Source: Longimicrobiales bacterium
Lineage (GTDB): Bacteria; Gemmatimonadota; Gemmatimonadetes; Longimicrobiales; RSA9
NCBI GenBank assembly: GCA_035461105.1
Contig: DATHVV010000063.1
Location: forward strand, 46,446-110,445
Reading direction: 5' to 3'
DNA length: 64,000 bases
Positions 2,649 to 61,264 of the stretch are shown one piece after another (within the stretch, counting starts at the first letter, position 1; the number at the start of each line of letters is the position of its first letter). The notes under the pieces were generated by a model. The model was given only the letters and a program-made list of their open reading frames with translations. It was not told the origin of the DNA and searched no databases. Made by a program: the position numbers and the translations under genes.

Positions 2649-4535
2649 CTAGCCCTCACCCTCGAGATACGTGTAGCCGGCCAGGCCGTCCACGTAGTCG
2701 GCGATGAACGTATTCGCCTCGCCGCGCGGTAGCCGTGCGTTGTGCACCTTGCGGCGGAACGTCGTGACCAGGTCCTGGGCGCTGAACTGCACGTAGTTGA
2801 GGACCTCGGTGACGGTGTCGCCGTGGACCAGGTCGCCGATCTCGTAGCCGCTCGATGTCAGCTTGATGTGCACGGCGTTGGTGTCGCCGAACAGGTTATG
2901 CATGTCGCCCAGGATCTCCTGGTACGCCCCCGTGATGAAGATGCCGAGCACGTACGGCTCGCCGTGTCGGAACGGGTGCAGCTCCAGGTTCCGCTTCGGC
3001 TTCCGCCAGCCGGCGAAGCGGTCGATCTTGCCATCCGAATCGCAGGTCATGTCCTGCAGCGTACCGCGGCGCGTCGGCTCCTCGTCGAGCCGGTGCACGG
3101 GCATGATCGGGAAGATCTGGTCGATCGCCCAGGAGTCGGGCAGCGACTGGAACAGCGAGAAGTTGCAGAAGTACCGGTCGGTGAGCACCACCGACAGATC
3201 GGGCAGGATGTCCTCGTACTCCTCTTCGTCACGGGAGGCCAGCTGGGCGATCCGGTTGATGATCGCCAGGTAGAGCTGTTCCGCCATGGCGCGCTCGCGC
3301 AGCGACAGCACACCGCTGTTGAAGTGCGAGTTGATCGTCTCCTTCGCGAACACCGCATCGTGGTAGATCTCGCGCAGCGAGCGGGTGTCCACCTCCTTGA
3401 GCGCGGCGGCCAGCTCGTGCACGATGGGGTGCGCATCGTCGTCGATGGTCTCGGGCACGACCGCGACCTGCGCTTCCAGGTCCACGACGTTGATGAGCAG
3501 CAGCGCATGGTGGGCGGTGAGCGCGCGCCCCGATTCCGAGATCACGTGCGGCATGGGCAGCTCGTTCTCGCGGCAGGCCTCGGCGAGCGAGTAGATGATG
3601 TCGTTCGCGTACTCCTGCACCGAGTAGTTGACCGAGGCGGAGCCGGTCGAGCGGGTGCCATCGTAGTCGACACCCAGGCCGCCGCCCACGTCCACGTACT
3701 CGATGCCCACGCCCAGCTGCCGCAGCTCCACGTAGAAGCGCGAGACCTCGGCCATCGCCGCCTTGATGTTGCGGATGTCCGGGACCTGCGAGCCGAGGTG
3801 GAAGTGCAGCATCTTCAGGATGTCGGGCGCCCCCGCGGCGTTCAGCCGGTCCACCGCCTCGACCAGCTGCGCCGAGGTCAGCCCGAACTTGCTCTTCTCG
3901 CCCGCCGACTCCGACCAGCGACCCGCCCCCGTGGTCGACAGCTTCACCCGGATCCCTGCGGTCGGAGTCACGTCCAGCTCGCGGGCCACCTTGAGCAGGA
4001 CGTCGACCTCGCTGAGCTTCTCGATCACCATGAGCACGGTATGGCCCAGCTTCTGCCCCATGAGCGCGAGCCGGACGTACTCCTCGTCCTTGTAACCGTT
4101 GCATACGATGATGTGATCGCTGCGCTCGGTGAGCGCGAGCACCGCCTGCAGCTCCGGCTTGCTGCCCACCTCCAGCCCGACGCCGTGCGACTCGCCGAAT
4201 TCGACGATCTCCTCGATCACGTGCCGCTGCTGGTTCACCTTGATCGGGTAGACCGTCGTGTACTCGCCCTGGTAGCCGAACTCCGCCCGGGCCGCCTCGA
4301 AGCGGTCCGAGAGCGTCTGGATGCGGGTTCGCAGGATGTCCGAGAACCGCAGCAGCAGTGGCAGCCGGATGCCCTGCGCCTCGAGGTCCATGGCCAGCTC
4401 GTAAAGGTCGAGTCCGCGCTCCCGCTCCTTGGTCGGGTGCACGGTGACGTGGCCCTTCTCGTTGATCTCGAAGTAGCCGATGCCCCAGCCTTCGATGTTG
4501 TACAGCTCGCGTGCGTCCTCGAGAGTCCAGCTCAT
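2649..4535 (-). CDS. speA: biosynthetic arginine decarboxylase
   Basis: ORF 2649..4622 trimmed to MSWTLEDARELYNIEGWG (ATG at 4535, GGAGCGA upstream). Full-length similarity to SpeA, e.g. YPIKVNQQ, HFHLGSQ, CDSDGKID. Confidence 0.9.
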   Translation of the reverse strand: MSWTLEDARELYNIEGWGIGYFEINEKGHVTVHPTKERERGLDLYELAMDLEAQGIRLPLLLRFSDILRTRIQTLSDRFEAARAEFGYQGEYTTVYPIKVNQQRHVIEEIVEFGESHGVGLEVGSKPELQAVLALTERSDHIIVCNGYKDEEYVRLALMGQKLGHTVLMVIEKLSEVDVLLKVARELDVTPTAGIRVKLSTTGAGRWSESAGEKSKFGLTSAQLVEAVDRLNAAGAPDILKMLHFHLGSQVPDIRNIKAAMAEVSRFYVELRQLGVGIEYVDVGGGLGVDYDGTRSTGSASVNYSVQEYANDIIYSLAEACRENELPMPHVISESGRALTAHHALLLINVVDLEAQVAVVPETIDDDAHPIVHELAAALKEVDTRSLREIYHDAVFAKETINSHFNSGVLSLRERAMAEQLYLAIINRIAQLASRDEEEYEDILPDLSVVLTDRYFCNFSLFQSLPDSWAIDQIFPIMPVHRLDEEPTRRGTLQDMTCDSDGKIDRFAGWRKPKRNLELHPFRHGEPYVLGIFITGAYQEILGDMHNLFGDTNAVHIKLTSSGYEIGDLVHGDTVTEVLNYVQFSAQDLVTTFRRKVHNARLPRGEANTFIADYVDGLAGYTYLEGEG

Positions 4536-4677
4536 GTCGCTCCGGCTCGATAGTCGTGGACCGCGTGGGCGGCAGGAATCCGGGAAGATGCGAAGGAAGC
4601 GGCACGCTGAAAAGGCCGGCACCAGCCTGGCGGCGGAGCCGGCCGGGCCCGCGCCGGCGCGCGCGAAGAGCCCGGGA

Positions 4678-4707
4678 GCGAGGGCGAGCCTGCTGCTTCG
4701 CCCTCGC
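4678..4707 (-). terminator. GC hairpin (GCGAGGGCGA / TCGCCCTCGC, 10-nt loop) just downstream of the M14 peptidase gene; no U-tract
   Basis: The perfect 10-bp inverted repeat was read directly. It is a member of the GAGGGCGA-core intergenic family. Confidence 0.4.
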
Positions 4708-4718
4708 CCCGCCCGACA

Positions 4719-7649
4719 TCAGGGCGCGGCCGCCGCGACTCCGGCGGCGGGCCCGCTCACGCCGAGGCTGCCGTGATGCAGCAGCGCGTTGAACAGCAGC
4801 GGATACGAGCCTAGCGTCTCGGAGCGCCAGAACGGGTTGAAGCTGAACAGCAGCACGTGTCCCCTGCCGTAGCTCACGTCGATCAGGGCCGGCGCGTTCG
4901 CCAGCGCGTCGCCACCCCGCAGGCCGCCGCTGATCAGCAGGTCCTTTGGCTGCTCCGCGAAGCGCATCACCACTCGAGCGTCCCGGATCGCCTGCGCCGG
5001 CGTGGGCGTGGAGTCCGGGTTCTCGCGCCGGAACTCCTCGACCCGATCGCCGCCCAGATCGCGGGCGCGGCCCTGCACGATGTCCGGCTCGTCCAGGCCG
5101 CCGCGGCTGCTGCGCCGTGCGGTGGTGCTGACTTCCGCTGGAGAGCGGGGTGCGGCCGCCGGACGTGCGGCTGCGCCGAAGCCCCCGGGCGCGCCGGGTC
5201 CGCCGGCGATCGCGAACACCGGCGCGGTGTTGAAGTAGACGCCCAGCTCCTCGTCGAAGCCGTACCCCAGCGGGCTCGCGGGATCCACGATGCGGCTGCG
5301 GAAGACGCCACCGCGAGCCCAGAGCGAGGGCGTCTCCCGGATCTGCACGCCCGGAGTCATCCCGAAGTGCACCGGCAGTACCGATGTGTTCTGCAGCGTG
5401 ATCAGCGTGCCGCCGGCCTTCACGAAGTTCGACAGGTTGAGCACGCCGGTGAGCTCGAGGCCGCCGCGCATGTCGGGGCTGGACGCCTGCCGGCCGAGGT
5501 TCGGGGTGAGCGCGGTCTTCTGCCACGGCAGCGGCTGCTCGCCCTGCAGACCGTTCAGCAGCACCAGCGCGCTGTTCGTCGCCGGCCCGAAGATGAGCAC
5601 GTCGTAGCGGTCACCCAGCCGCGCGTCGTCGCGCACGTCGTGCACCGAGATGTACTCGTACGGCACCCCGTACTCGTCCAGCCCGATCCGCACCCAGCCT
5701 TCGTTCTGGGTGGTGGTCCAGGTGTGCACCACCGCGACGCGCGGCACCACGACCGGGTGGGTCGCGACCGCCGGCACGTCGGCCACGCCGCGCGCCACGA
5801 ATCCGTATTCCGCCGTGGCCCGCTCCAGCAGCGCCGCCAGGTTGTCGGGATTCCCGCGTGCCGGGATGATGAACGAGCCCGCGGGATAGCCATGGCCGCC
5901 GCTCTCGAAGGCCACTTCGGCCGCGAGCACGCGCAGCCTGCGGTGTGCGAAGCGGAACGCGGCCAGCCCGTTTTCGGCCCGGTTCGCGATCACGAACGCG
6001 CGCGCACCCGCGGCGTCTGCGACGGCACCGCCGGCCCGGACGGGCTCGGTGATCCGCGTCATCGCTGTCCCGAGCAGAGTCGTGTCCTCGACCCGCACGC
6101 TCCGCGTGTTGTAGAGCGGCGCGAGCGTCCAGCCGACATCGTCGTAGGGGGCGGGGTCCTCCGGGTTGTAGTACTGCCGGTCGAGCAGCATGTCCGCGGC
6201 GCGCGAGAACGGCTGGTCCATGCGCACCACCATGCTGCCCGGCGGGAACGTATCGGTCGCCGTCGCCGCCGGCGCGTCGAGCCGGTGCACCTCGATGCCG
6301 TGCCGCTGCAGCAGCTGCAGCAGTCGCGCCTGCTGCCCGGGCCGCGGATCGGACGCCGGGAAGACGTACCCGGCCGGGCCCTCGGCGCGGGCCTTCGCGA
6401 CGGCGCGCTGGCTCTTCAGGTAGAAGCTCCGCAGATACTCGGTGCGGTTCCCGGCGACCTCGCCGAGCGCGACCAGCAGCGCACTCTGCTGCAGGTTCAC
6501 GTTGTTGCGGATCGACCAGACCACCTCGGGCAGCGGCGTGTTCGGCCGGTGCCAGGCCCGGTCCACGCTCGTGCGCACGATGCGGTTCGAGGCGTCGCCC
6601 GCCCCCTGAGTCTCGTAGAAGCGGCCGATCGAGTTGCGGATGTTCGCGGTCCAGAGCAGGTAATTGGGCGACCAGCCGTCGTAGAAATCGAACGTGTAGA
6701 CCCCGGGCACGCCGTAACCGGTCAGCGCCTCCACCTCGCGATGCGCGAGCCGGTACCACTCGCTGATCAGCACCGGGTCCACCCAGGCGTTGTATGGCCC
6801 GCGACCGGTCGACGTGTACAGGTACGAGGCGGACTCGTGCAGGTCGTGCAGCACCGTCGGGTTCCATTCCAGGAAATGACGGGTGACGTGCCGCGAGAGC
6901 TGCAGCGCGAGCCCGATGTTGTCGCGGTTGTTGTCGTGGGCGACGTACTTGCCCCAGTACGCCAGGCGGCTGGCCACGTTCGCCTTCGGGTCCCGGCGCT
7001 TCGCCATGTGCAGGTCGACCTGCTTGGCGCGGCCATCCACCTCGAGCACCGGTGTCAGCATCACGATCAGGTTATCGCGGATCCGGCGTACCGCCTCCGA
7101 TTCGTCCACCGCCAGCCGATACGCCAGCTCCATCAGCATCTCCGGCGAGCCGGTCTCGGGCGAATGGATGGCTCCCGTCGCCCAGTAGACCGGCTTCGCC
7201 TGCGCGATCAGCAGCTCCGCCTCGGACGGGGGCGTGCGGCGCGGATCCGCGAGCCGGGCCAGCAGGTCGCGATATTCGTCCAGCCGGGCGATCGTCGGCG
7301 CGTCGGAGATGACCACCACGATCAGCTCGCGACCTTCCTCGCTCTCGCCGAGCGACAGCACGCGGACCCGGTCGGAGGCCGCCTCGATGGCACGCATGTA
7401 GGCGTGCACGTCCTCGGGGTACGTGAGCACATTGGGCGCGCCGGCGATATGCCCGAGCACCGCGAGCGGCGTCGGCACCGTCTCCGACTTCGGCAGATAG
7501 TCGACGAGCGGCGTGAGGAAGAACGGCTCGGTCGTGTAGGCGCGGATCTGAACGCCGTACGCCGAGTCCTGCGGCTGCTGGCCGAAGGCCGCGGTTGAAA
7601 GCAGCAGGAGCGCGACCGCCAGCCGCAGCGCGCGAAGCATCGGGGCCAT
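4719..7649 (-). CDS. secreted M14-family metallocarboxypeptidase-like protein (large, multi-domain)
   Basis: Signal peptide MAPMLRALRLAVALLLLSTAAFGQQ. The N-terminal region resembles the zinc carboxypeptidase fold (..IHSPETGSPEM..). GAGG lies upstream of the ATG. 976 aa. Confidence 0.75.
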   Translation of the reverse strand: MAPMLRALRLAVALLLLSTAAFGQQPQDSAYGVQIRAYTTEPFFLTPLVDYLPKSETVPTPLAVLGHIAGAPNVLTYPEDVHAYMRAIEAASDRVRVLSLGESEEGRELIVVVISDAPTIARLDEYRDLLARLADPRRTPPSEAELLIAQAKPVYWATGAIHSPETGSPEMLMELAYRLAVDESEAVRRIRDNLIVMLTPVLEVDGRAKQVDLHMAKRRDPKANVASRLAYWGKYVAHDNNRDNIGLALQLSRHVTRHFLEWNPTVLHDLHESASYLYTSTGRGPYNAWVDPVLISEWYRLAHREVEALTGYGVPGVYTFDFYDGWSPNYLLWTANIRNSIGRFYETQGAGDASNRIVRTSVDRAWHRPNTPLPEVVWSIRNNVNLQQSALLVALGEVAGNRTEYLRSFYLKSQRAVAKARAEGPAGYVFPASDPRPGQQARLLQLLQRHGIEVHRLDAPAATATDTFPPGSMVVRMDQPFSRAADMLLDRQYYNPEDPAPYDDVGWTLAPLYNTRSVRVEDTTLLGTAMTRITEPVRAGGAVADAAGARAFVIANRAENGLAAFRFAHRRLRVLAAEVAFESGGHGYPAGSFIIPARGNPDNLAALLERATAEYGFVARGVADVPAVATHPVVVPRVAVVHTWTTTQNEGWVRIGLDEYGVPYEYISVHDVRDDARLGDRYDVLIFGPATNSALVLLNGLQGEQPLPWQKTALTPNLGRQASSPDMRGGLELTGVLNLSNFVKAGGTLITLQNTSVLPVHFGMTPGVQIRETPSLWARGGVFRSRIVDPASPLGYGFDEELGVYFNTAPVFAIAGGPGAPGGFGAAARPAAAPRSPAEVSTTARRSSRGGLDEPDIVQGRARDLGGDRVEEFRRENPDSTPTPAQAIRDARVVMRFAEQPKDLLISGGLRGGDALANAPALIDVSYGRGHVLLFSFNPFWRSETLGSYPLLFNALLHHGSLGVSGPAAGVAAAAP

Positions 7650-18828: not shown

Positions 18829-20308
18829 GCTGGGCATGATCATCGGGGGTGTCGCCCTCGCCGTCATCTTCCTCGCGCTCTACACCATCAACCGGCTGAT
18901 CATCATCGTGCCGCCGAACATGGCGGCGGCGATCACCGGCCGCGAGCGCGCGCTCGAGGACGGCTCGTCGGTCGGCTACCGCACCGTGACCGGCGGGCGC
19001 ACGCTGCGCATTCCGATGCTCGAGAAGGTACAGTGGCTCTCGCTGGGCACGATCCCGCTCGAGATCAACGTCACCGATGCCTACTCGCGCGGCAACATTC
19101 CGCTCGCGGTGCAGGCGATCGCGAACGTGAAGATCGCATCGGCGCCCGAGTCGGTCTTCAACAACGCCGTGGAGCGACTGCTCGGCAAGGACCAGGCGGA
19201 AATCGAGCGTCTCGCGCGCGAGACGCTCACCGGCAACCTGCGCGGCGTGCTCGCCAAGCTCACCCCGGAAGAGGTGAACGAGGACCGGCTCGGCTTCGCG
19301 CGGCACCTCTCCGAGGAGGCGGATCACGACCTGAAGAAGCTCGGCCTGCAGCTCGACGTGCTGAAGATCCAGCACGTGAGCGACAAGGTGGGCTACCTGC
19401 AGGCGATCGGCGAGAAGGCGACGGCCGAAGCGCTGCGTGATGCCGAGATCGCGAAGGCGGATGCGCTCGCCGAGACGCGCCAGAAGCAGGCCGAGGCGAA
19501 GCAGCGTGCGGAGGTCGCTTCCGCGTACGCGGAAGCGGAGATCAAGAAGCAGCAGGCGGAGGCGCGTCGCCTGGCCGCCGTGGCGGAGGCCCAGGCGGAG
19601 GCGAACATCAAGCAGGAGCAGGCGGGCGCGCGCCGGCTCGCCGAGATCGCCGATGCCGAGGCCGGGGCGCAGATCAAGCAGCAGCAGGCGGCGGCCCGCA
19701 AGCTGGCCGAGGTGGCCCAGGCGCAGGCGGACGTGAGCATCTCCGAGGCGAAGAACGTCCTGCGCGTGCGCCAGGCCGAGCTGAACCGCGAGGCGGAGAC
19801 GGCGGAGAAGGTGGCGCGCGCTTCCGCCGAGCGTGCCGAGGCCGAGGCGAAGACCGAGACCGAGCTGCAGCGCGTCGAGCTGGAGAAGACTCGCCTGCAG
19901 GCCGACGTGGTGCAGCCGGCCGAGGCCGCACGCCTGGCCGCCGAGGCCGATGCCCGCGCGATCGCCGCGCCCATCCTGGAGAAGGGTCGCGCCCAGGCCG
20001 CCGTGCTCAACCTGCTCTACGAGCAGATCCAGCAGGGCGGCGCCGCGGGGCTGCAGGTCTTCCTCGCGGAAAAGCTGCCGGCACTGCTGGGCGTCACCGT
20101 CGATGCCATGAAGGACATCAGCATTGACCGGCTCACCGTGATCGACAGCGGCGATGGGAAGGGCGTCGCGAACGCGGCGACCCAGAAGGTGAACGCGTCC
20201 CTCGCCGCGCTCGAGCAGGTCGCCGGCGCCATGGGGCTGGACCTGGAGGACTTCCTGCAGCGGCTCAAGCGGACGAGTCTGCCGGCAGAAACGACGGTCA
20301 AGCTGTAG
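18809..20308 (+). CDS. flotillin / SPFH (band-7) domain protein
   Basis: N-terminal TM anchor, SPFH domain, then long Ala/Glu-rich coiled-coil repeats. The alternative start is ATG at 18821 (MNELGMII). Confidence 0.85.
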   Translation: MELHMNELGMIIGGVALAVIFLALYTINRLIIIVPPNMAAAITGRERALEDGSSVGYRTVTGGRTLRIPMLEKVQWLSLGTIPLEINVTDAYSRGNIPLAVQAIANVKIASAPESVFNNAVERLLGKDQAEIERLARETLTGNLRGVLAKLTPEEVNEDRLGFARHLSEEADHDLKKLGLQLDVLKIQHVSDKVGYLQAIGEKATAEALRDAEIAKADALAETRQKQAEAKQRAEVASAYAEAEIKKQQAEARRLAAVAEAQAEANIKQEQAGARRLAEIADAEAGAQIKQQQAAARKLAEVAQAQADVSISEAKNVLRVRQAELNREAETAEKVARASAERAEAEAKTETELQRVELEKTRLQADVVQPAEAARLAAEADARAIAAPILEKGRAQAAVLNLLYEQIQQGGAAGLQVFLAEKLPALLGVTVDAMKDISIDRLTVIDSGDGKGVANAATQKVNASLAALEQVAGAMGLDLEDFLQRLKRTSLPAETTVKL

Positions 20309-20376
20309 GGGAGGGGCGAGGGCGAGGGCGAGGGGGTGGAGGGAATCTCGCTCTCTGCCCTTCTCTCGCCCTCGTC
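20309..20376. repeat. G-tract array (GGGGAGGGGCGAGGGCGAGGGCGAGGGGGTGGAGGG) facing a C-rich arm (CTCTCGCCCTCG); fills the spacer between the convergent flotillin and DtxR genes
   Basis: Read directly: three tandem GGGCGA hexamers, with CGAGGGCGAG and CTCGCCCTCG complementary. It may act as a bidirectional terminator. Confidence 0.5.
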
Positions 20377-21057
20377 CTAGCCACCGCCCTCCCCTTCCGG
20401 CTCGACTCGCACCTTCCCCGCCAGCCCGGTACCGATCGCGCACTCGCTCTGGCCGACGCGGAGCCGTACCGGCCCACTGAAGGGTGCGCGCTCCAGCACG
20501 CACACGCGCGCTCCCGGCACCAGCTCCAGCTCCGCGAAATAGCGCAGCGCCTCGGCGTCCTCGTCCGGTACCCGGCGCAGCACGGCGGGCTGGCCGATCT
20601 CGATATCAAGCAGCGTGGGCAGCTCGACCTCGTGCAGCTCCCCGCCGGCGGTCGGGATCGGGGCGCCGTGCGGGTCCTCGTCGGGCTCGCCGAGCACGCG
20701 TGCCATGCGGTCGATCAGCTCCGCGGACACCGCGTGCTCGAGACGTTCCGCCTCGTCGTGCACGCAGTCCCACGAGTAGCCGAGCACCCGCACGAGAAAC
20801 AGCTCGAGCACGCGGTGGTGGCGGATCGTGCGCACCGCGGTGGCGTCGCCCGCGGCGGTGAGGCGCGCGCCGTAATAGCGGGTATGCTCGACGAGACCCT
20901 GCTCGGCGAGCCGTTTCAGCATGCCGGTCACCGAACCGGGCGCGACCCCGAGCCGCTCGGCGAGCGCCGAGGTGCTGACCGGCGCGCCCTGGCCCGACAG
21001 CTGGTGGATCGCCTTGAGGTAGTCCTCGACCGCGGGGGTGGTCATGCCTCCTGCCAC
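20377..21057 (-). CDS. DtxR/MntR-family metal-dependent transcriptional repressor with C-terminal FeoA/SH3-like domain
   Basis: VEDYLKAIHQL...TSALAERLGVAPGSVTGMLKRLAEQGLV wHTH, a dimerisation/metal-binding region (HDEAERLEH), and a FeoA-like tail. It overlaps the upstream permease stop. The start is ATG at 21057 or 21045. Confidence 0.85.
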   Translation of the reverse strand: MAGGMTTPAVEDYLKAIHQLSGQGAPVSTSALAERLGVAPGSVTGMLKRLAEQGLVEHTRYYGARLTAAGDATAVRTIRHHRVLELFLVRVLGYSWDCVHDEAERLEHAVSAELIDRMARVLGEPDEDPHGAPIPTAGGELHEVELPTLLDIEIGQPAVLRRVPDEDAEALRYFAELELVPGARVCVLERAPFSGPVRLRVGQSECAIGTGLAGKVRVEPEGEGGG

Positions 21058-25151: not shown

Positions 25152-27359
25152 ATGCGGTGTCGGTGGCTGGCCGTGGCGATCGGGCTCGGGCTGGGCGGCA
25201 CCCCGGCCTGGGGCCAGACGGTGCTGGAGGGCCGGGTGGAAGACGGGAGCGGGCTGGCGCTCGCGCGGGCGGAAGTGGTGCTCCAGCCGCTGGGTCGGAA
25301 TGCGGTGACGGATCGCGATGGGCGGTTCCGCTGGCGGGGTCTGGCGCCGGGGCGCTACCGGGTGCTGGCGGCGCGTATCGGGTACGCGCCGGCGGAGGTG
25401 TCGTTGACGCTGGGGGCGGGCGACAGCGTGCTGGTGGTGGTGCGGCTGGAGGCGTCGCCGCTGGAGCTACCTGGCCTGGAGGCGAGCGCGAGCATCGGTG
25501 CGCGGGATCCGTCGGCGGTGATCCAGGCGACGACGCAGCTGTCGGGGCGCAGCCTGGAGCGTGAGGTGGGCGGAAGCATTGCGCAGACGCTGCGCTACCA
25601 GCCGGGGGTGGCGGTGCGGTTCATGGGTCCGGGGGCGGCAGCGCCGGTGCTGCGGGGCTTGACTGGGGACCGGGTGCTGATGCTGCAGGACGGACAGCGG
25701 AGCGCGGATCTGTCGGGTTCGGCGGACGATCATGGTACGACCGCGGACCCACTGGCGGCCCAGCGCGTGGAAGTCGTGCGCGGTCCGGCGACGCTGCTGT
25801 ACGGGAACAATGCGCTGGGCGGCGTGGTGAACGTGATCTCCGGGGATGTTGCGAGCAGCATCCCCCATCGCGCGGAGGTCTCGCTCGCCGCGCACACGGA
25901 GAGTGCGTATCCGGGGGGGGCGGCGAGCGTACGCACGATCGTTCCGCTGGGTGCGGCAGTGGCGCTCACGGCGCGGGCCGGGGGACGCAGTGCCGGTGAC
26001 ATGCGGATCGGTGCCGACCCGGTGCTCGGCGACCGGCTGCGCAACACGGCGGCCCGATCGTGGAACGGGGCGGTCGGGTTGTCGCGGGTGAGCGGCGGGT
26101 GGACGGCGGGCGCGGCGGTGCGCGGCCACGGCTTCGCCTACGGGTTGCCGGTGCCGCCCGGGGCGGCGCCGGTGAGCCTGGAGGGATCGCGCCGGGAGGT
26201 GATCGCGCGGGCGGAGGCGGAGCTCGGACGCGGCGTGCTGGGCTCGGGCCGACTCGACGGGACGGTGCAGGATTACGGGCACGACGAGCTCGATGGCGAG
26301 GGCGCGGTTCAGCAGCGTTTCGCGCTGGCCACGCGCACGCTCACGCTGCAGCTGCGCCAGCGCGCGACCGGCCCGCTGCGCGACGGCGCGTGGGGAGTGT
26401 CGCTGCTCGAGAAGCGATACGCGGCCACCGGTCCGGCGGCGCTCACCCCGTCGGCACGTTCCGGGGCGTGGGGGCTGTTCGGCTTCCAGGAGCTGGGCTT
26501 CGGCGCCGGCCCTTCGCTGCAGCTGGGCGCCCGCATCGACGAGTACTCGATCCGGTCGCGCGCGGACGACAAGTTCGGACCGGCCCGATCGCGCCGGCTG
26601 CGTGCGTGGTCCGGGTCGGCCGGGCTGCGCCAGGAGCTGGCCCCGGGCGTGGCGGCGAGCTTCACCTATGCGCGATCGTTCCGCGCGCCCACGGTGGAAG
26701 AGCTGTTCTCGGGCGCGCCCCACGCGGGAACGGGGGCGGTGGAGTACGGGAACGCGGCGCTGCGCGCGGAGCGCGGTGCCTCCGTGGAGGGGCTGGTCCA
26801 CGTGCGGCGCAGCGGCGTGCAGGCGCAGCTCGCGGTGTATCGCAACCGCATTGACGACTACATCGCGCTCGAGCACGTCGGCGACACGCTGATCGGCGGG
26901 GCGCAGCTCCCGGTCTACGTGTACGGCCAGCAGACGGCGGTGCTGCGCGGGGCCGAGGGGTCGACGGAGTTTGCGCTGGGCCGGACGCTGGCGCTCGGCG
27001 TGCGCGGCGACGTCCTGCACGCGGCGCGGACGTCGGGCCTGCCGCTTTCGTTCATGCCGCCCGCCCGCCTGGGTGCGCACCTGCGCTGGGACGACGGGCG
27101 GTTCGCGCTGGGCGGCGAGCTGCACCACGAGTTCGCACAGCTGCGGGTCGGGGCCGGCGAGGAGCGACCCACGCCCGCGCACACGCTGCTGCGGCTGGAC
27201 GCCGCAGTGCGCCTGCGCATCGGCGGGCACACGCATTCCCTCACGCTGCGCGCCGAGAACCTGACCGACGAGCTGCACCGGGAGGCCACCAGCCGGATCA
27301 AGGACTGGGCGCCGGCGGCCGGCCGCAACATCGCCCTGGGCTACCGGGCCTGGTTCTGA
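25152..27359 (+). CDS. TonB-dependent outer-membrane receptor with N-terminal CarboxypepD_reg-like domain
   Basis: Signal peptide; GRVEDGSG...GRYRVLAARIGY (carboxypeptidase-regulatory-like fold); plug motifs (VEVVRGPATLLYGNNALGGVVNV); terminal aromatic ...GYRAWF. AAGGAG lies upstream. Confidence 0.85.
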   Translation: MRCRWLAVAIGLGLGGTPAWGQTVLEGRVEDGSGLALARAEVVLQPLGRNAVTDRDGRFRWRGLAPGRYRVLAARIGYAPAEVSLTLGAGDSVLVVVRLEASPLELPGLEASASIGARDPSAVIQATTQLSGRSLEREVGGSIAQTLRYQPGVAVRFMGPGAAAPVLRGLTGDRVLMLQDGQRSADLSGSADDHGTTADPLAAQRVEVVRGPATLLYGNNALGGVVNVISGDVASSIPHRAEVSLAAHTESAYPGGAASVRTIVPLGAAVALTARAGGRSAGDMRIGADPVLGDRLRNTAARSWNGAVGLSRVSGGWTAGAAVRGHGFAYGLPVPPGAAPVSLEGSRREVIARAEAELGRGVLGSGRLDGTVQDYGHDELDGEGAVQQRFALATRTLTLQLRQRATGPLRDGAWGVSLLEKRYAATGPAALTPSARSGAWGLFGFQELGFGAGPSLQLGARIDEYSIRSRADDKFGPARSRRLRAWSGSAGLRQELAPGVAASFTYARSFRAPTVEELFSGAPHAGTGAVEYGNAALRAERGASVEGLVHVRRSGVQAQLAVYRNRIDDYIALEHVGDTLIGGAQLPVYVYGQQTAVLRGAEGSTEFALGRTLALGVRGDVLHAARTSGLPLSFMPPARLGAHLRWDDGRFALGGELHHEFAQLRVGAGEERPTPAHTLLRLDAAVRLRIGGHTHSLTLRAENLTDELHREATSRIKDWAPAAGRNIALGYRAWF

Positions 27360-27382
27360 GCGCGGCGGCGTGCTCGGTCGGA

Positions 27383-27452
27383 GCGCGGCAGCGCGGCGCT
27401 TCGGGGCGCGGCAGCGTATCGGTTCCCGGGCGCGGCAGCGTGTCGGGATTTT
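27383..27452 (+). repeat. three tandem ~24-bp direct repeats with core GCGCGGCAGCG
   Basis: The cores are at 27383, 27406 and 27430, read directly. They lie between the TonB receptor stop and the acyl-CoA synthetase start. Confidence 0.7.
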
Positions 27453-37905: not shown

Positions 37906-37987
37906 GGGACCAGGGCAGAGGGCGAGGGCGAGGAGGGGGCGGGAAGGGAGGGTGGGGGGTTGGAGGGGGAGGCGAGAGGGGGAGGGG
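37906..37987 (+). repeat. ~80-nt uninterrupted G-tract array (more than 12 runs of G3 or longer), candidate G-quadruplex-forming sequence; C-rich on the csp-coding strand
   Basis: Read directly: GGGACCAGGGCAGAGGGCGAGGGCGAGGAGGGGGCGGGAAGGGAGGGTGGGGGGTTGGAGGGGGAGGCGAGAGGGGGAGGGG. Confidence 0.6.
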
Positions 37988-38037
37988 CACGGCGTGTGCG
38001 CCTGCGCGGCGGGCGAGCGCAACAACGGAGCGTAAAC

Positions 38038-39549
38038 ATGGATTCCAGGGAAGATCGGACACGCACGCTGTGGCGGAGCACGGTCGAGCTGCCGGCGTTC
38101 GAGCGGCTCCGGGCCAATGCGGACGTGGACGTATGCGTGGTCGGGGCGGGCATCGCGGGGCTGAGCACGGCCTACCTGCTGGCCCGGGAGGGCCGCAGCG
38201 TGCTGGTGCTCGACGACGGCGACATCGGCGGCGGCGAGACGGGCAACACGACCGCGCACCTCTCGAACGCGTTCGATGATCGGTTTTCTGAAGCCGAGCG
38301 GCTGTTCGGCGAGGGCGGCGCACGACTGATCGCGGCCAGCCACGGTGCGGCCATCCGGATGATCCGGGAGATCGCGGAGCGCGAGCGCATCGAGTGCGAC
38401 TTCGCCACGGTGGACGGCTACCTGTTCCCGGCGCCGGGCGGTGAATCGCAGCTGCGCGAGGAGGCGCGCGCGGCGCGCACGGCGGGCATCGACGTGGTCA
38501 TCACGCAGGACCCGCCCTGGAACCCGTTCGGTACGGGTCCCGCCCTCCGCTTCCCGGGCCAGGCGCGGTTTCATCCGCTCAAATACCTGGCCGGGGTGGC
38601 GGCCGCGGTCCACCGACAGGGGCGCATCTGCACCGGCACGAAGGTGAGTGCGATCCACGGCGGGGAGCGCGTGCGGGTAGAGACCACGGGCGGCGCGGTC
38701 GTGACCGCGGGCGCGTGCGTGGTCGCCACCAACGCAGCCATCACGGACATGTTCCAGACGCACTTGAAGGCGGCGCCGTATCGTACGTTCGTGGTCGCGC
38801 TCGAGGTTCCTTCCGGGACCGTGCCCGATGCGCTCTACTGGGAAGACGCCGATCCCTACATCTACATCCGCCTGCACCCGGGCTCCGGCCGCGACTACCT
38901 GATCGTGGGTGGCGAGGACCACAAGACCGGCCAGGAGGACGATGGCGCGGAGCGGCTGCAGCGGCTCGAGCGCTGGACACGCGAGCGCGTGTCGGCGGCG
39001 GGTGCGCTCGCGTTCGCGTGGTCCGGCCAGGTCATCGAGCCGGACGACTGCGTCGCCTTCATCGGCCCCAACCCGGATGGCGCCGAGAACGTCTACATCA
39101 TCACCGGCGACTCGGGACAGGGCATGACCCACGGGACCCTCGGGGCACTGCTGCTGACCGACCTGATCCAGGGGCGGGCCAACGAGTGGGCGCAGCTCTA
39201 CGATCCGCGGCGCGTCAGCGCAGGCGCGGTCGGGGAGTACCTGCGTCAGAACCTGAACGTCGCAGCGCAGTACGCGGACTACGTGAAGCCTGGTGAGGTG
39301 CGCAGCGCCGACGAGGTGGCACCGGGCACCGGCTGCCTGATGCGCCGGGGCGCGAAGATCCTGGCCGTCTATCGCGACCCCGATGGACACGTCCACGAAC
39401 GCTCTGCGGTGTGCACGCACATGAAGTGCATCGTAGCCTGGAACGAGCTGGAGAGATCGTGGGACTGCCCCTGCCACGGCTCGCGCTTCGACCCCTACGG
39501 CCGCGTGCTGAACGGGCCGGCCATCGAGGAGCTCGGTCCCGCCGAGTGA
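38038..39549 (+). CDS. FAD-dependent oxidoreductase (DAO-like) fused to a C-terminal Rieske [2Fe-2S] domain
   Basis: ORF trimmed to [12 protein letters not shown] (ATG at 38038). Dinucleotide fold [18 protein letters not shown]. Rieske ligands CTHMKC...CPCHGS. Confidence 0.8.
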
Positions 39550-39647
39550 CGGGCTTGCCCCGAGTGCGGATCGCCGCACGGCGCGAGCCGCGTCCGGGGC
39601 CGGCAACGGCGCTGGCGCGGAGCGGGCGGTGCAGTAGCTTTGCGCGT

Positions 39648-40814
39648 ATGAGTTTCCACGACCGCGTCCGCTTCCCGCGCGGCTTCCGCTGCGCCGCTCG
39701 CAACTGCGGACTGAAGGCGGAGGGTCCCGACCTTTCGCTGTTCGTGTCCGACGTCGACGCGGCGGCCGCCGCCGTCTTCACGCGCAACCGGTTCCCCGGC
39801 GCCCCCGTGATCCTCGGGCGCGAGACGATCGCCGGCGGCGTGCTTCGCGCAGTGGTCGTGAACAGCAGGGTGAGCAACGTCGCCACGGGCGAGGTCGGCG
39901 TGGCCCGGGCGCGGCGCATGGCGGCCGCGGCGGCGCACGAGGCCGGCACCACGCCGGAGCGGGTCCTGGTCAGCTCCACGGGCGTGATCGGCGTGGCGCT
40001 CCCGATCGAGAAGATCGAGGCCGGCCTGTCCGGCATGGGCCGGGCGCTCGGCGACGACCCGCTGGTCGGCGCGACGGGCATGATGACCACCGACTCGTTC
40101 CCGAAGGCGCTCTCGCTCGACGCCGGCACCGCCACGATCACGCTCGTGGGCAAGGGTGCGGGCATGATCGAGCCGAACCTGGCGACGATGCTCGTCTACA
40201 TCTTCACCGACGCGGCGTTCGCGGCGGCCGAGCTCGATGCCATGCTGCGCGCGGCCGTGCACGGCTCGTTCAACATGCTCTCCATCGATACCGACACGAG
40301 CACCTCGGACACGGTCGCGCTGCTCGCGAACGGCCGGGCCGGACCGGTCGCCCGCGACGTCTTCGAGCCGGCGCTGCGGGCGGGCTGCGTGCGCATGACG
40401 GAGCTGATCGCGCGCGATGGCGAGGGTGCCAGCAAGCTGCTGCGCGTGCACGTGCGCGGCGCGGCCTCGGAGGCGGACGCGCGCACCGTCGCGAAGTCGC
40501 TGGTCAACTCGCCGCTGATCAAGACCATGGTGTATGGCGCGGATCCCAACGTAGGCCGCATCCTGATGGCGATCGGCAAATGCTTCGATGCCGCGATCGT
40601 ACCGGCAGCGACGCACGCATCCATCGGCGGCATCCAGGTGGTCGCCGGCGGCGCGCGGGCCGAGTTCGACGAGGCCCGCGTGCGGCACGTGCTCGGCTGC
40701 GACCCTGTCGACCTGGAGGTGGACCTCGGTACCGGCGCGGCCGCGGTGACTGCCTGGGGCTGCGATCTCACGGAAGGCTACATCCGCGAGAACGCAGCGT
40801 ACTATTCCAGTTGA
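39648..40814 (+). CDS. argJ: bifunctional glutamate N-acetyltransferase / amino-acid acetyltransferase
   Basis: ORF trimmed to [13 protein letters not shown] (ATG at 39648). Autoproteolytic site [17 protein letters not shown] and C-terminal ENAAYYSS are typical of ArgJ. Confidence 0.9.
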
Positions 40815-40918
40815 TAGGGATAGGGATAGGCGGGCTCAGGGGGGTTTAGGGGTCGAGGCTCTCCCGCTCCGCGTCCTGGTCCCTATCCTATCCCTATCCC
40901 TATCCCTGTCCCTGTCTC
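40813..40918. repeat. inverted repeat with 6-nt periodicity: GATAGGGATAGGGATAGG (40813..40830) and CCTATCCCTATCCCTATC (40887..40904), perfect 18-bp arms, 56-nt G-rich spacer, plus extra TGTCCC units
   Basis: Read directly and base-checked. It starts inside the argJ stop codon and ends 2 nt before the next ATG. Confidence 0.85.
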
Positions 40919-40920
40919 CG

Positions 40921-42663
40921 ATGTTCAGAATCCGGCGGATCTTCGACGATACTGCGCCGCACGATGCGGCGGCACTCGCGCAGGTGCAGCAGATCCTGCG
41001 CGAGCAGTTTCCGGACGTGCCCGAGTCGAAGGTACGGCGCGTGCCGGCGTCCCTGCGCGACCCGATGACGCTCCGTTTCCGCAGCATCCTGTTCGTCGCC
41101 GAGCAGCGCGGGCGGGTGATCGGGTTCGCGCTGCTGCTGCACGCGCCCGACCTGGATTTCTGCTTCCTGGACTACATCGCGACGGTGAAGGCGGGGAGTG
41201 GTCGGGGCGTGGGCGGCGCGCTCTACGAGCGGGCGCGGGATGAAGCGGTCGGGCTCGGCGCGGTCGGCATCTTCCTCGAGGCGCTGCCCGACGACCCGCA
41301 GCTCTGCCCGGGCCCGGACCGGTTGCGCCAGAACGCGGCGCGGCTCCGCTTCTACGAGCGGTACGGCGCGTTCCCGATCGCGAACACCGCCTACGAGACC
41401 CCGGTCGGGCCGGGGGAGGAGTGTCCGCCCTACCTGGTGTTCGATGACGTGGGCAGCGAGCGACCGCTGTCGCGCCGGCGCGCCCGGGAGATCGTGCGCG
41501 CCATCCTGGAGCGGGTCTACCCGCAGCTCTGCCCGCCCGCCTACGTGCAGCTGGTCATGGACTCGTTCCGTGACGATCCGGTGCAGCTGCGCGCACCCCG
41601 TTACCTCAAGCCGGACGCGGGCGGGGTCGCGCCGGCGGAGCCGGGCCGGCGGATCGCGCTGGTTCAGACCGAGCAGCATCGGCTGCACCACGTACGCGAG
41701 CGCGGTTACGTCGAGGCGCCGGTGCGCATCGAGGCGCTGCTGCGCGAGCTGCGCCGGCTGCCGCTTTTCGACGACGTCCCGGTGCGCCGCTTTCCGGACA
41801 GCCACATCCTGGCGGTGCACGACCGCGATTTCGTGGAGTACCTGCGCCGGGTCTGCAACGGACTGGGCGAGAACGAGGTGGTGTACCCGTACGTCTTCCC
41901 GATCCGCAACGCGACGCGGCCGCCGCGCGACCTGGCCGTGCGCGCCGGCTACTACTGCATCGATACGTTCACGCCGCTCAGCCGCAACGCCTGGATCGCG
42001 GCGCGACACGCCGTCGACTGCGCGCTCACCGCCGCCCAGAAGCTGCTCGAGGCGTATCCGCTGGCCTATGCGCTGGTGCGCCCGCCCGGCCACCACGCCG
42101 AGGTGCGCGCCTTCGGCGGCTTCTGCTACTTCGGCACCGCGGCCATCGCGGCACACTACCTGAGCCAGGCCGGGCGCGTCGCGATCCTCGACATCGACTA
42201 CCACCACGGGAACAGCCAGCAGAGCATCTTCTGGCGGCGCGCCGACGTGCTCACCGTGAGCATCCACGGCCATCCGTCCTTCGCCTATCCGTACTTCACC
42301 GGGTTCGAGGAGGAGCGCGGCGAGGCGGAGGGCGCAGGCTTCAACCTGAACATCGCGCTGCCGGAGCAGGTGGAGGGCGCCGCGTACCGCCGGGCGCTGC
42401 AGCGCGCCCTCGCCGAGGTGCGCCGCTTCGCGCCGGAGTACCTGGTGGTGGCGCTCGGCCTGGACACCGCGCGCGGCGACCCGACCGGCAGCTGGTCGCT
42501 CAACGCCGAGGACTTCGCGCGCAACGGCGAGCTGATCGGCGCCCTGCGCGTGCCCACTCTGGTCGTGCAGGAGGGCGGCTACCGGACCCGCTCCATCGGT
42601 GTCAACGCGCGCCACTTCTTCGACGGGCTGTGGCGCGGCAAGTACCCGGCGGCGAAACGCTGA
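40921..42663 (+). CDS. GNAT acetyltransferase - HDAC/acetylpolyamine-amidohydrolase-family deacetylase fusion protein
   Basis: N-terminal ~190 aa carries GNAT motif A (ATVKAGSGRGVGGALYERARDEA). The C-terminal ~330 aa carries RPPGHHA, DIDYHHGN, GLDTARGDP and QEGGY. There is no SD-like sequence upstream. Confidence 0.85.
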   Translation: MFRIRRIFDDTAPHDAAALAQVQQILREQFPDVPESKVRRVPASLRDPMTLRFRSILFVAEQRGRVIGFALLLHAPDLDFCFLDYIATVKAGSGRGVGGALYERARDEAVGLGAVGIFLEALPDDPQLCPGPDRLRQNAARLRFYERYGAFPIANTAYETPVGPGEECPPYLVFDDVGSERPLSRRRAREIVRAILERVYPQLCPPAYVQLVMDSFRDDPVQLRAPRYLKPDAGGVAPAEPGRRIALVQTEQHRLHHVRERGYVEAPVRIEALLRELRRLPLFDDVPVRRFPDSHILAVHDRDFVEYLRRVCNGLGENEVVYPYVFPIRNATRPPRDLAVRAGYYCIDTFTPLSRNAWIAARHAVDCALTAAQKLLEAYPLAYALVRPPGHHAEVRAFGGFCYFGTAAIAAHYLSQAGRVAILDIDYHHGNSQQSIFWRRADVLTVSIHGHPSFAYPYFTGFEEERGEAEGAGFNLNIALPEQVEGAAYRRALQRALAEVRRFAPEYLVVALGLDTARGDPTGSWSLNAEDFARNGELIGALRVPTLVVQEGGYRTRSIGVNARHFFDGLWRGKYPAAKR

Positions 42664-42777
42664 GAATGAAATCCGGTCCCGCGCATGCCGTCGCCCTTCG
42701 CGCACGCCAGGGGGTAGGCATCGCTTGCGGTGGCCGGCAACTTGCTCAGGCAGCGCGTACGCAAAGGAGGGTGAGCG

Positions 42778-43077
42778 ATGCCGGAGGCGTGGGAGCTTTA
42801 TTACGATGAGGTCTACCGGCGCGCCGCGCGCGTGGCCGATCAGCGCTTCGATCGCGGCCGCGCGTTCGCGGAGGCGGCGCACGAGGCGTACCGCACCGTC
42901 GCCAACCGCCTCTCGAACGAGGCGGAGTGGAGCGACGACCACACGCTCCACGTCATGCACGGACTGAACGCCGCGATGAAGCAGTGGATCGACTGCGGCG
43001 AGTGCTCGTGGGACGACCTGCGTGCGCGGCTTCGGAAAGCCTGGGGCCAGGCCACCGAGAGCCGCCCCACGGCCTAG
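42778..43077 (+). CDS. hypothetical protein (99 aa)
   Basis: A strong SD (AAAGGAGGG) precedes the ATG. Helical-looking sequence with a CGEC pair. No family recognised. Confidence 0.55.
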   Translation: MPEAWELYYDEVYRRAARVADQRFDRGRAFAEAAHEAYRTVANRLSNEAEWSDDHTLHVMHGLNAAMKQWIDCGECSWDDLRARLRKAWGQATESRPTA

Positions 43078-43274
43078 CCCATTCCCCAGGTTCCCGGGTC
43101 CTGACGGCGCGGGCAGCCGGAGCCCTGACGGCGCGGCCTGCCGGCGCGGGCGACGCGCCATCGCGGGGTCCGGCAGGAAGTTGGCGATGCCGGGGGGCGC
43201 CGGGCGCGGCTGCGTTCCAGGGCCCGGGCCGTCCGCCCCATCGTGACCCTCCCGGGCGGTCCAGAAAAGGGTTA

Positions 43275-43295
43275 GATTGCATGGTTGATGCAATC
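43275..43295. promoter_or_regulatory. perfect 8-bp palindrome GATTGCAT-N5-ATGCAATC in an AT-richer patch of the helicase leader
   Basis: Read directly. It lies in a 374-bp spacer upstream of the DEAD-box helicase. Confidence 0.35.
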
Positions 43296-43451
43296 CACGA
43301 GGCCGGCTTCGCCCTCCTGGCGGACCCGGTCTTTTTGCGAGAGTGCGTCGAGCATGCGTCCCGGTAAGGCACCGGGAATCGTCCGGTCGGACCGACCGGG
43401 GGCGGCGGGGAAGGACCCCAACGCCAGTACAGCTGGAAGAGAGGACAGATT

Positions 43452-44696
43452 TTGACGTTCGAGGAACTGGTACCGTCCGGGCCGCTGCGGCGTGCGATCG
43501 CGGAGCAGGGCTGGACGACGCCGACGCCGATTCAGCAGAAGGCGATTCCGGCGGCGCGCGCGGGACGGGATGTGGTGGGGATCGCACAGACGGGTACGGG
43601 CAAGACGGCGGGGTTCCTGATCCCGTCGGTGGAGAAGCAGCTGGACAGGGACGGGCTGCACACGCTGGTGCTGTGTCCGACGCGTGAGCTGGCCGACCAG
43701 GTGGCGGCCGACGCGCGCACGCTGCTCCGGCACACCGACTTGTGGGTGGGCACGATCGTTGGCGGGGTGCCGATGGGTCCGCAGGTGCGCGATCTGCGCG
43801 CGGGCTTCGACGTGCTGGTGGCGACGCCCGGTCGCCTGCTCGATCACCTCGAGCGCGGCAACGTGAAGCTGAACGAAATCCAGACGCTGGTGCTCGACGA
43901 GGCCGATCGCATGCTGGACATGGGATTCCGGCCGCAGATCGACGCGATCCTGGCGCAGCTCCCGAAGGTGCGGCAGACCATGCTGTTCTCGGCGACCATG
44001 CCGAACGGCGTGCATGCCATGGCGTTGCGCATCATGAACGATCCGGTCTGGGTCGAAGCGGCGCCGCAGTCGACGGTGGCGGACCGCGTCGAGCAGAAGG
44101 TGTACTCGGTGCGGGCCGAGCGTAAGCCGGCCCTGCTGCTGGAGCTGCTGAAGGAGACGCACTGGGAGCAGGTGCTCGTGTTCACGGCCACGAAGGTGGG
44201 TGCGGACGCACTGCTCTCGCGCCTCGCGAGGGCCGGGATCCGGGCCGAGGTGATGCACGGCGACCGTGACATGAAGCAGCGTCGCAAGGCGCTCGAGCTG
44301 TTCACGGATGGCAAGGTACAGGTGCTGGTCGCGACGGACGTGGCGCAGCGCGGCCTCGACATCGAGGGCATCAGCCACGTCGTCAATTACAACGTGCCGC
44401 GCCAGCCCGAGGATTACGTGCACCGCATCGGGCGGACGGCGCGCGCGGGCGCGTCGGGCTCGGCGGTGACGTTCATGTCGGGCGGCGAGCTGGCGGCGAT
44501 GAAGGACATCGAGCGGCTGCTCGGCTACCGCGTGGAACGCGTGTCGCTGGCCGATTACGACTACGAGGGCTCGACGGTCGATGAGCAGCCGGTACGCCCG
44601 GTCGCAAAGGCGAACCGCAGCGGCAGCCGGATCGGCACGCGCAGCGCGAAGGAGCTCTCTCCCGAACAGCTGCGGGAGCTGCTTAAAGTCGGGTGA
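43452..44696 (+). CDS. DEAD-box ATP-dependent RNA helicase (RhlE-like)
   Basis: TTG start. Q-motif TPIQ, AQTGTGKT, PTRELA, DEAD, SAT, HRIGRTARAG. Confidence 0.9.
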   Translation: MTFEELVPSGPLRRAIAEQGWTTPTPIQQKAIPAARAGRDVVGIAQTGTGKTAGFLIPSVEKQLDRDGLHTLVLCPTRELADQVAADARTLLRHTDLWVGTIVGGVPMGPQVRDLRAGFDVLVATPGRLLDHLERGNVKLNEIQTLVLDEADRMLDMGFRPQIDAILAQLPKVRQTMLFSATMPNGVHAMALRIMNDPVWVEAAPQSTVADRVEQKVYSVRAERKPALLLELLKETHWEQVLVFTATKVGADALLSRLARAGIRAEVMHGDRDMKQRRKALELFTDGKVQVLVATDVAQRGLDIEGISHVVNYNVPRQPEDYVHRIGRTARAGASGSAVTFMSGGELAAMKDIERLLGYRVERVSLADYDYEGSTVDEQPVRPVAKANRSGSRIGTRSAKELSPEQLRELLKVG

Positions 44697-61069: not shown

Positions 61070-61080
61070 GGACGGATTTA

Positions 61081-61264
61081 CGGCGGGCGGGGGCGGGGGT
61101 GGGCGTGGGGGTGGGGGCACTTCGGGGGCGCTGCGGGTGGGGGGCGCCGTGCCATGACGTGCTCGGTGCGCGCGGGCCTCGCGACGAGCCCCGACGGCAG
61201 GGCGAGGGACCCCTCGCCCGCCGTGTTCCCGCCGTTCCTCCACCCCCACGCCCACACCCGCCGT
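61081..61264. repeat. long-range G-rich/C-rich inverted repeat (left arm 61081..61114, right arm 61240..61263; perfect 16-mer GTGGGCGTGGGGGTGG / CCACCCCCACGCCCAC) enclosing an inner GGGCGAGGG/CCCTCGCCC hairpin at 61200..61219
   Basis: Arms base-checked by hand. The spacer between the 16-mers is ~125 nt. The element lies directly downstream of the S9 peptidase stop. Confidence 0.75.

Follow-up and report, generated by a model that had tools for sequence, protein, structure and literature searches.

Inverted G-tract hexamer repeats between argJ and a GNAT-histone-deacetylase-family fusion gene of an uncultured Longimicrobiales bacterium, a candidate 3′-end or processing hairpin

We examined a stretch of DNA of 64 kb (the window; G+C 71%) from an uncultured, soil-type member of the Longimicrobiales (Gemmatimonadota), in which argJ is followed by a co-directional gene for a GNAT-histone-deacetylase-family fusion protein (the fusion gene). 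Two G-tract hexamer simple-sequence repeats, arranged as an inverted pair, make up the spacer between the two genes, with the sense array at the argJ stop codon and the antisense array in front of the fusion gene. The explanation that we favour, at a probability of roughly 40%, is that this pair acts as a post-transcriptional 3′-end or processing hairpin that uncouples argJ from the fusion gene. The features and their coordinates are collected in the table below.

The spacer reads ...TCCAGTTGATAGGGATAGGGATAGG CGGGCTCAGGGGGGTTTAGGGGTCGAGGCTCTCCCGCTCCGCGTCCTGGTCCCTAT CCTATCCCTATCCCTATC CCTGTCCCTGTCTCCG ATG. Its left arm, GATAGGGATAGGGATAGG, begins at the second base of the argJ TGA, thereby placing three more in-frame TAG codons behind the stop, and the exact reverse complement, CCTATCCCTATCCCTATC, follows after 56 nucleotides (nt). 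No match to this 18-mer occurs in 100 dinucleotide-preserving shuffles of the window, even when up to 3 mismatches are allowed. A sequence-only reading of this DNA had described a perfect 18-bp inverted repeat of 6-nt period starting in the argJ stop codon, and we confirm it, both here and in an independent assembly of the same species. That reading had also taken the 56 nt between the arms for a G-rich loop; the length is correct, but only the 5′ half (40831-40858, with runs of G3, G6 and G4) is G-rich, and the C-rich 3′ half (40859-40886) pairs with it. The antisense array, which lies 5-41 nt upstream of the ATG at 40921, is made of two GGGACA and three GGGATA units, one 5-nt unit and GGGA. 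On the C-rich side, Tandem Repeats Finder reports 40880-40913 with period 6, 5.8 copies and 89% match, the 5-nt unit being CCTAT. The earlier description of CCCTAT and CCCTGT units running to 2 nt before the ATG needs a small correction: the array is there, but its final CCCTGT stops at 40915, a distance of 5 nt from the ATG; it is a CTCC tail that reaches to 2 nt.

Folding of the RNA from 40800 to 40930 gives -58.9 kcal/mol, with a z score of -2.65 against dinucleotide shuffles on the + strand and of -4.07 on the - strand, bearing out the expectation that a long hairpin can form. The predicted structure is a composite hairpin of about 100 nt, in which 3 bp lead into the 18 perfect bp and these into an imperfect inner helix; at its foot the stem rests on the argJ stop codon and lies 17 nt before the AUG of the fusion gene. 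On the mRNA the antisense array is a C3N3 array that offers the left arm three pairing registers (-66.7, -63.4 and -65.5 kcal/mol), which are nearly equal because units are more numerous on the C-rich than on the G-rich side and because CCCUGU pairs with GAUAGG through G-U. When we scanned both strands of the 64 kb with 110-nt sliding windows (about 12,800, corrected for GC), the one at 40801 ranked as the second most structured (z -4.2), after that at 20301-20410 (z -4.5). There is no match to Rfam 15 at gathering score anywhere in the window.

The spacer is real and not an artefact of assembly, since an independent assembly of the same species in ENA (L217), which is 99.75% identical across 20.3 kb (46 difference events, 43 of them mismatches), has a spacer that is 100% identical, base for base. 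The repeat palindrome is thus not hypervariable at the strain level. The proteins on both sides, HSJ13779.1 and HSJ13780.1, belong to one Longimicrobiales metagenome-assembled genome at NCBI, and homologues of the fusion protein begin at the same MFRIRR as the ATG at 40921. An alternative upstream start of the fusion gene was rejected: the frame is open from 40750, but no ATG, GTG or TTG precedes 40921, and homologues share the Met.

Comparison with relatives indicates that the hairpin is derived, having been inserted into a junction that used to be tight: where the fusion protein is 69-72% identical (L004 and L203-L211), the two genes are separated by 7-9 nt with no hairpin. The long spacer is present only in the window (106 nt) and in its 90% relative (L001/L002), with 74 nt in L001. 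The L001 spacer also forms a hairpin, AGGACCGGGACAGGGCAGCAGG ... CCUGCUCCUGUCCCCGGUCC (-44.3 kcal/mol, z -2.5), of different sequence: its 5′ arm is G-rich with period 6 and its 3′ arm C-rich, and its repeat units differ from those of the window. In the alignment, the inner 56 nt of the window correspond to the hairpin of L001, and the outer GGGATA and CCCTAT/CCCTGT arms are extra blocks flanking that part. Fourfold-degenerate sites in the flanking genes differ at 37-47% between the two lineages, against about 55% at full saturation, so neutral sites are near saturation, and the spacer itself diverges about as fast as synonymous sites. To judge from these two sequences, the hairpin appears to be either selected for pairing or continually re-homogenised. 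In an 85% relative (L003, 1960-2060), argJ is absent and the GNAT-deacetylase gene lies 9 nt after an FAD-Rieske gene. A metagenome scan with the fusion protein returned only relatives of 54-63% identity, none with an adjoining argJ, and a search with its N-terminal 150 aa found no close partial relatives.

The G3-array hairpin at argJ is one of a class in this genome rather than a one-off. At least 7 of the 39 gene ends in the window carry sense-strand G3-tract arrays 0-9 nt past the stop codon, and several of these seven have a C-rich complement downstream and no T-run. The motif GAGGGCGAGG, which derives from arrays of (GGGCGA)n, has seven occurrences where 0.48 would be expected, every one of them in intergenic DNA. 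The top-ranked structure of the window, at 20308, has the (GGGCGA)3 design and sits between convergent genes, one for a flotillin (Band_7) and one for an iron-dependent repressor, so that only a 3′-end role makes sense for it. In relatives at 83-93% identity the Band_7 gene ends in an ordinary, unrelated hairpin at the same place, indicating that the position of a 3′ hairpin is kept while its sequence turns over. The apex of the 20308 hairpin (G-run and loop, 20331-20347) shows small indels and swaps relative to near-identical strains (L212/L213); the argJ spacer shows no difference between strains. One (GGGCGA)n array fills the divergent region between csp and the FAD-Rieske gene (37912-37990). 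There is also a modest excess of G over C 20-40 nt after stop codons (skew +0.15 to +0.17, p about 0.001), compared with +0.10 at coding ends.

We propose that the repeat pair folds in a bicistronic argJ-fusion mRNA into one very stable composite stem-loop, which would act after transcription start as a structure that forms or protects a 3′ end. It might do so as a terminator without a U-tract, as a barrier to exonucleases or as an RNase III-type processing site. Such a hairpin would uncouple argJ and the fusion gene in their expression; in more distant relatives the two abut (7-9 nt) and are presumably translationally coupled. Its arms could stay matched through repeat slippage, hairpin-templated correction, selection for pairing or a mix of these, and G-quadruplex (G4) folding would be at most a transient co-transcriptional intermediate. 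That the hairpin forms in vivo and alters transcript ends, stability or processing is a model, built on several observations. The order of stop codon, G3N3 array, loop and C3N3 array, with no T-run, recurs at the 3′ ends of unrelated genes. Both the window and L001 keep a strong hairpin with a G-rich 5′ arm although their synonymous sites are near saturation, a strain diverged by 0.25% has an identical spacer, and the spot is among the two most structured in 64 kb. In Xanthomonas, transcripts were found to start or stop more often at similar G4-forming repeats than at control repeats (Rehm et al. 2015, PLoS One, PMC4692102).

Several points weigh against this proposal. There is no T-run 3′ of the stem, where the sequence is CCTGTCCCTGTCTCCGATG, and a terminator scan reports nothing at the spacer. 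Canonical terminators with T7-T10 runs are present elsewhere in the same genome, so intrinsic termination by the host RNA polymerase probably depends on a U-tract. A scan of 38000-44000 found no sigma-70-like promoter, and full termination would therefore silence the fusion gene, leaving only partial termination or processing tenable. The hairpin is known in only two diverged lineages, too few for a statistical test of covariation (two-sequence RNAalifold). Lastly, no function was found for the analogous repeats of Xanthomonas and Nostoc (PMC4692102).

An alternative that we regard as possible, though less probable than the proposed hairpin function, is a neutral, self-perpetuating repeat: the arrays would have arisen by slippage and strand-switching (a quasipalindrome) and would be kept palindromic by the same processes, with no selected role in expression. 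The derived state of the insertion and the lack of a hairpin in most relatives are consistent with this, as is a spacer divergence about equal to the synonymous rate. The arms are pure simple-sequence repeats, so that perfect complementarity is automatic once one unit is present on both strands. G-rich low-complexity arrays are moreover common in intergenic DNA of the clade: of 20 segments that score at least 1.6 in G4Hunter in related loci, 14 fall in non-coding DNA, which makes up 11-15% of the sequence. The analogues without a found function in Xanthomonas and Nostoc point the same way (PMC4692102). A neutral origin accords less well with the retention of the hairpin by two lineages near synonymous saturation, with the unchanged repeat number between strains, or with the positions and orientations of the arrays, which are non-random relative to stop and start codons. 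It also fits poorly with the 118 other (GGGATA)3 matches listed for public genomes, not one of which is accompanied by an inverted partner within 200 nt. None of these listed matches belongs to the source genome, and two are from Gemmatimonadota (L112 and L116), each a lone array at an unrelated locus. (GGGATA)n arrays are dispersed in two Chloroflexota metagenome-assembled genomes (L016-L122; contigs JALUWE01... and JALVZI01...); an Anaerolineales bin supplies about 18 of the 118 listed matches and an Anaerolineae bin about 7, with up to 12 units and none in an inverted pair.

We consider it unlikely that the spacer is a G-quadruplex or i-motif switch, in which a G4 in the nascent RNA (+ strand) or the template DNA (- strand) would compete with the hairpin and so modulate polymerase progress or fusion-gene initiation through K+, temperature or a G4-binding protein. 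The sequence-only reading had proposed such structures on either strand, and the motifs stand: G3N1-7 motifs of the canonical type occur on both strands, with G4Hunter scores of 1.3-1.9 on the + strand (maximum 1.9 at 40820-40858) and of about -1.36 across the C-rich array. As the dominant fold they do not. RNAfold still places the hairpin at the energy minimum when its G4 model is included, and we therefore rejected a G4 as the fold at equilibrium. Only nascent RNA that ends at 40845-40855 marginally prefers a G4; transcription of the C-rich half gives the hairpin an advantage of about 40 kcal/mol, with no contribution from the G4 model. In number, segments with a high G4Hunter score do not exceed those of Markov-shuffled sequence (12 in the window against 11.7 +/- 4.2), and they are remarkable only for their intergenic location. 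The left array has just three units. In duplex DNA, a 56-nt spacer between the arms disfavours extrusion of a cruciform. There are precedents for such a switch, in that analogous repeats make G4s and i-motifs in vitro (PMC4692102) and a switch between G4, hairpin and duplex has been proposed for intergenic repeats of Escherichia coli (Kaplan et al. 2016, Nucleic Acids Research, PMC5100583).

Quite unlikely, in our view, is translational coupling or gating, or a masked Rho site, whereby ribosomes ending argJ would melt the left arm and alter access to the fusion start or to a rut-like C-rich tract. The geometry is suggestive: a ribosome that terminates at 40812-40814 would cover the left arm with its footprint, the stem draws the argJ stop and the fusion start to within about 17 nt of each other, and by hand count 40860-40920 holds about four C per G. 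The fusion leader also lacks a Shine-Dalgarno sequence. The sequence-only reading had set this lack against the sites of most neighbours, and rightly so in that a Shine-Dalgarno-like 4-mer precedes 12 of the 18 neighbouring genes called; none is found upstream of the fusion ATG, but argJ likewise has none. Against a gate, forcing 40800-40827 to be unpaired, as with a ribosome on the argJ stop, does not open the start region (-20..+15), whose unpaired probability is 0.47 compared with 0.48 in the free RNA; that of -16..-1 drops from 0.50 to 0.28. With start-site accessibility unchanged, we rejected a ribosome-melting gate as the main mechanism, and folding lends no support to the translational gate of the earlier proposal. 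The Rho logic would be inverted as well, with the rut-like tract exposed exactly when translation is active. A promoter within the spacer was also considered and rejected: TATCCT at 40884-40889 is the hexamer most like a -10 element, but by eye no -35 element accompanies it, and the sigma-70 scan is empty.

Very improbable, finally, is the earlier suggestion of a small non-autonomous mobile element with 18-bp terminal inverted repeats: the repeats are perfect, relatives show an empty 7-9 nt site and another G-rich intergenic element of the clade appears to be dispersed, but the arms are simple repeats, unlike transposase-type ends, neither they nor the interior recur within the window or across some 100 kb from relatives (L001, L003, L004, L203, L208 and L211), the spacer flanks (CCAGTT and CCTGTC) hold no direct repeat that could be a target-site duplication, and a diverged, shorter hairpin at the exact same site in the sister lineage indicates evolution in place.

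The proposed 3′-end or processing hairpin can be set beside several known systems. Intercistronic stem-loops that stabilise or process polycistronic mRNAs include the repetitive extragenic palindromic (REP) sequences in malE-malF and the hairpins of the puf operon. Like these, the argJ hairpin is stable, free of a U-tract and located between two co-transcribed genes, with a proposed effect on differential stability or expression; unlike them, it has arms of simple-sequence repeats and a stem far longer than typical decay barriers. With intrinsic terminators it shares a G+C-rich stem-loop directly after a stop codon, but it has no U-tract and is a composite of about 100 nt, compared with a stem of 5-14 bp and a loop of 3-8 nt. 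Our literature search pairing Gemmatimonadetes or Gemmatimonadota with intrinsic terminators or G-quadruplexes found nothing.

Closest among known kinds are the G4-forming simple-sequence repeats found in Xanthomonas (GGGAATC) and in Nostoc (GGGGAYT), which are over-represented between co-directional open reading frames (ORFs) and, in Xanthomonas, often come as convergent pairs able to form stem-loops (PMC4692102). The argJ spacer is a tidy example of that kind and not a new kind of element. It has tandem units within the 6-9 nt range, each with a tract of at least three G (GGGATA x3; about 5.8 of GGGATA/GGGACA), lies in non-coding DNA between co-directional ORFs, and agrees with both positional rules, the sense array starting in the TGA and the antisense array ending 5 nt before the ATG. 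It is likewise a convergent opposite-strand pair that yields a stem-loop, and its length and sequence vary between related genomes. The differences are a hexamer unit (GGGATA/GGGACA), a different phylum and G4s that are predicted in silico only; the left array has three units, where four is the preferred number in those repeats, and GGGATA arrays occur at one locus in 64 kb, the recurrent unit of this genome being GGGCGA. The G4-hairpin-duplex switch motifs of E. coli (PMC5100583) are similar in that an extragenic G4-capable tract stands beside a complementary C-rich tract, so that hairpin and G4 compete, and in their location between ORFs, often near 3′ ends and sometimes as opposed pairs. 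Those motifs, however, are a conserved dispersed family, whereas the argJ hairpin is built of repeats, single-copy within the 64 kb and without sequence relatives.

If the hairpin sets transcript ends or processing, a tight operon junction would have been rewired simply by the growth of a repeat-built palindrome, and the still unexplained G-quadruplex-capable repeats at ORF boundaries would extend from Xanthomonas and cyanobacteria to uncultured Gemmatimonadota, with a hexamer unit. If it is neutral, it would be a clean case of a repeat palindrome whose two arms evolve in concert. In either event the scope is one gene pair, and no long-standing question is opened. A bolder extension, which we rate as improbable, is that G3N3 repeat hairpins (GGGATA, GGGCGA) are a Longimicrobiales-specific punctuation, namely 3′-end or processing signals free of a U-tract whose G-rich 5′ arm could be trapped co-transcriptionally as an RNA G-quadruplex, so that read-through from argJ would depend on K+, temperature, an RNA helicase or a cold-shock protein. 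Genes for proteins of the RNA helicase and cold-shock types lie near the argJ-fusion locus, and the synteny csp, FAD-Rieske oxidoreductase, argJ, fusion, DEAD-box helicase and amylase is kept in related metagenomic contigs.

Table. Positions of the argJ-fusion spacer, its parts and flanking genes, and of related G-tract features in the window.
Feature	Position	Strand	Basis or remark
argJ (388 aa)	39648..40814	+	stop TGA 40812-40814; Pfam ArgJ 1.8e-121; exact protein is NCBI HSJ13779.1
Left arm, (GATAGG)3, a GGGATA hexamer array on the sense strand	40813..40830	+	Tandem Repeats Finder: period 6, 3.0 copies, 100% match
Inner 56 nt	40831..40886	+	fold, G4Hunter and alignments; halves pair imperfectly, lengthening the stem
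Antisense G-tract hexamer array	40880..40915	-	Tandem Repeats Finder; inverted repeats I1-I3
Right arm, (CCTATC)3	40887..40904	+	exact reverse complement of the left arm
C-rich leader without a Shine-Dalgarno sequence, CCTGTCCCTGTCTCCG	40905..40920	+	
GNAT-histone-deacetylase-family fusion gene (580 aa)	40921..42663	+	Pfam GNAT and Hist_deacetyl 1.2e-72; exact protein is NCBI HSJ13780.1
TAG, then GGGGAGGGG(CGAGGG)3GGGTGGAGGG, loop and C-rich complement	20306..20398	+	-79.7 kcal/mol, z -5.84
Gene ends with sense G3-tract arrays	4719-, 7876-, 20308+, 31281-, 40814+, 46682+, 61269-		
GAGGGCGAGG sites	7855, 20318, 20324, 31260, 37918, 37924, 46693		most directly after stop codons, sense strand

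Other repeats were seen in the window and in related contigs. An imperfect inverted repeat of about 180 nt (61080-61262, 71% self-complementary), in which a C-rich arm follows a G-rich one, is flanked by two minus-strand genes (stop 61269, next start 60930). The G-rich arm (61080-61144) shares 86% identity with L001 12202-12263, at a different, intergenic locus after a 98-aa ORF, and this match suggests a dispersed family of G-rich repeats in the clade. On the - strand, 2652-7649 holds genes for an M14 carboxypeptidase and an arginine decarboxylase (speA-like) with a spacer of about 100 nt between them, in which a hairpin, GGGCGGGGCGAGGGCGA...TCGCCCTCGCTCCCGGGC, with the G-rich arm first, begins 4 nt after the stop at 4719; arginine and polyamine genes thus adjoin such hairpins twice in the window. 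The spacer between the DEAD-box helicase and amylase genes of L001 (13788-14022) contains an (GGACCAAG)n array of 8-mers, preceded by GTCCCAGG-type units and followed by a canonical T10 terminator; at this position the window has just a short spacer and a terminator. In L004, a 72% relative, the intergenic region between IF-1 and the FAD-Rieske gene (6557-7266) carries a G-rich array of GGGCGT/GCGGGC type in two copies as well as a long CACCCGGTC/CACCCGATG tandem array. Further tandem repeats of the window are an intergenic one of a 23-nt unit x4.1 at 27352-27446, just past the stop at 27359, and a 13-nt unit x4 (CCTGACGGCGCGG) at 43100-43149 in the spacer upstream of the DEAD-box helicase gene. 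A 66-nt unit x3.1 at 19529-19731 lies inside the flotillin/Band_7 gene, where it is coding and rich in A, E, Q and K.

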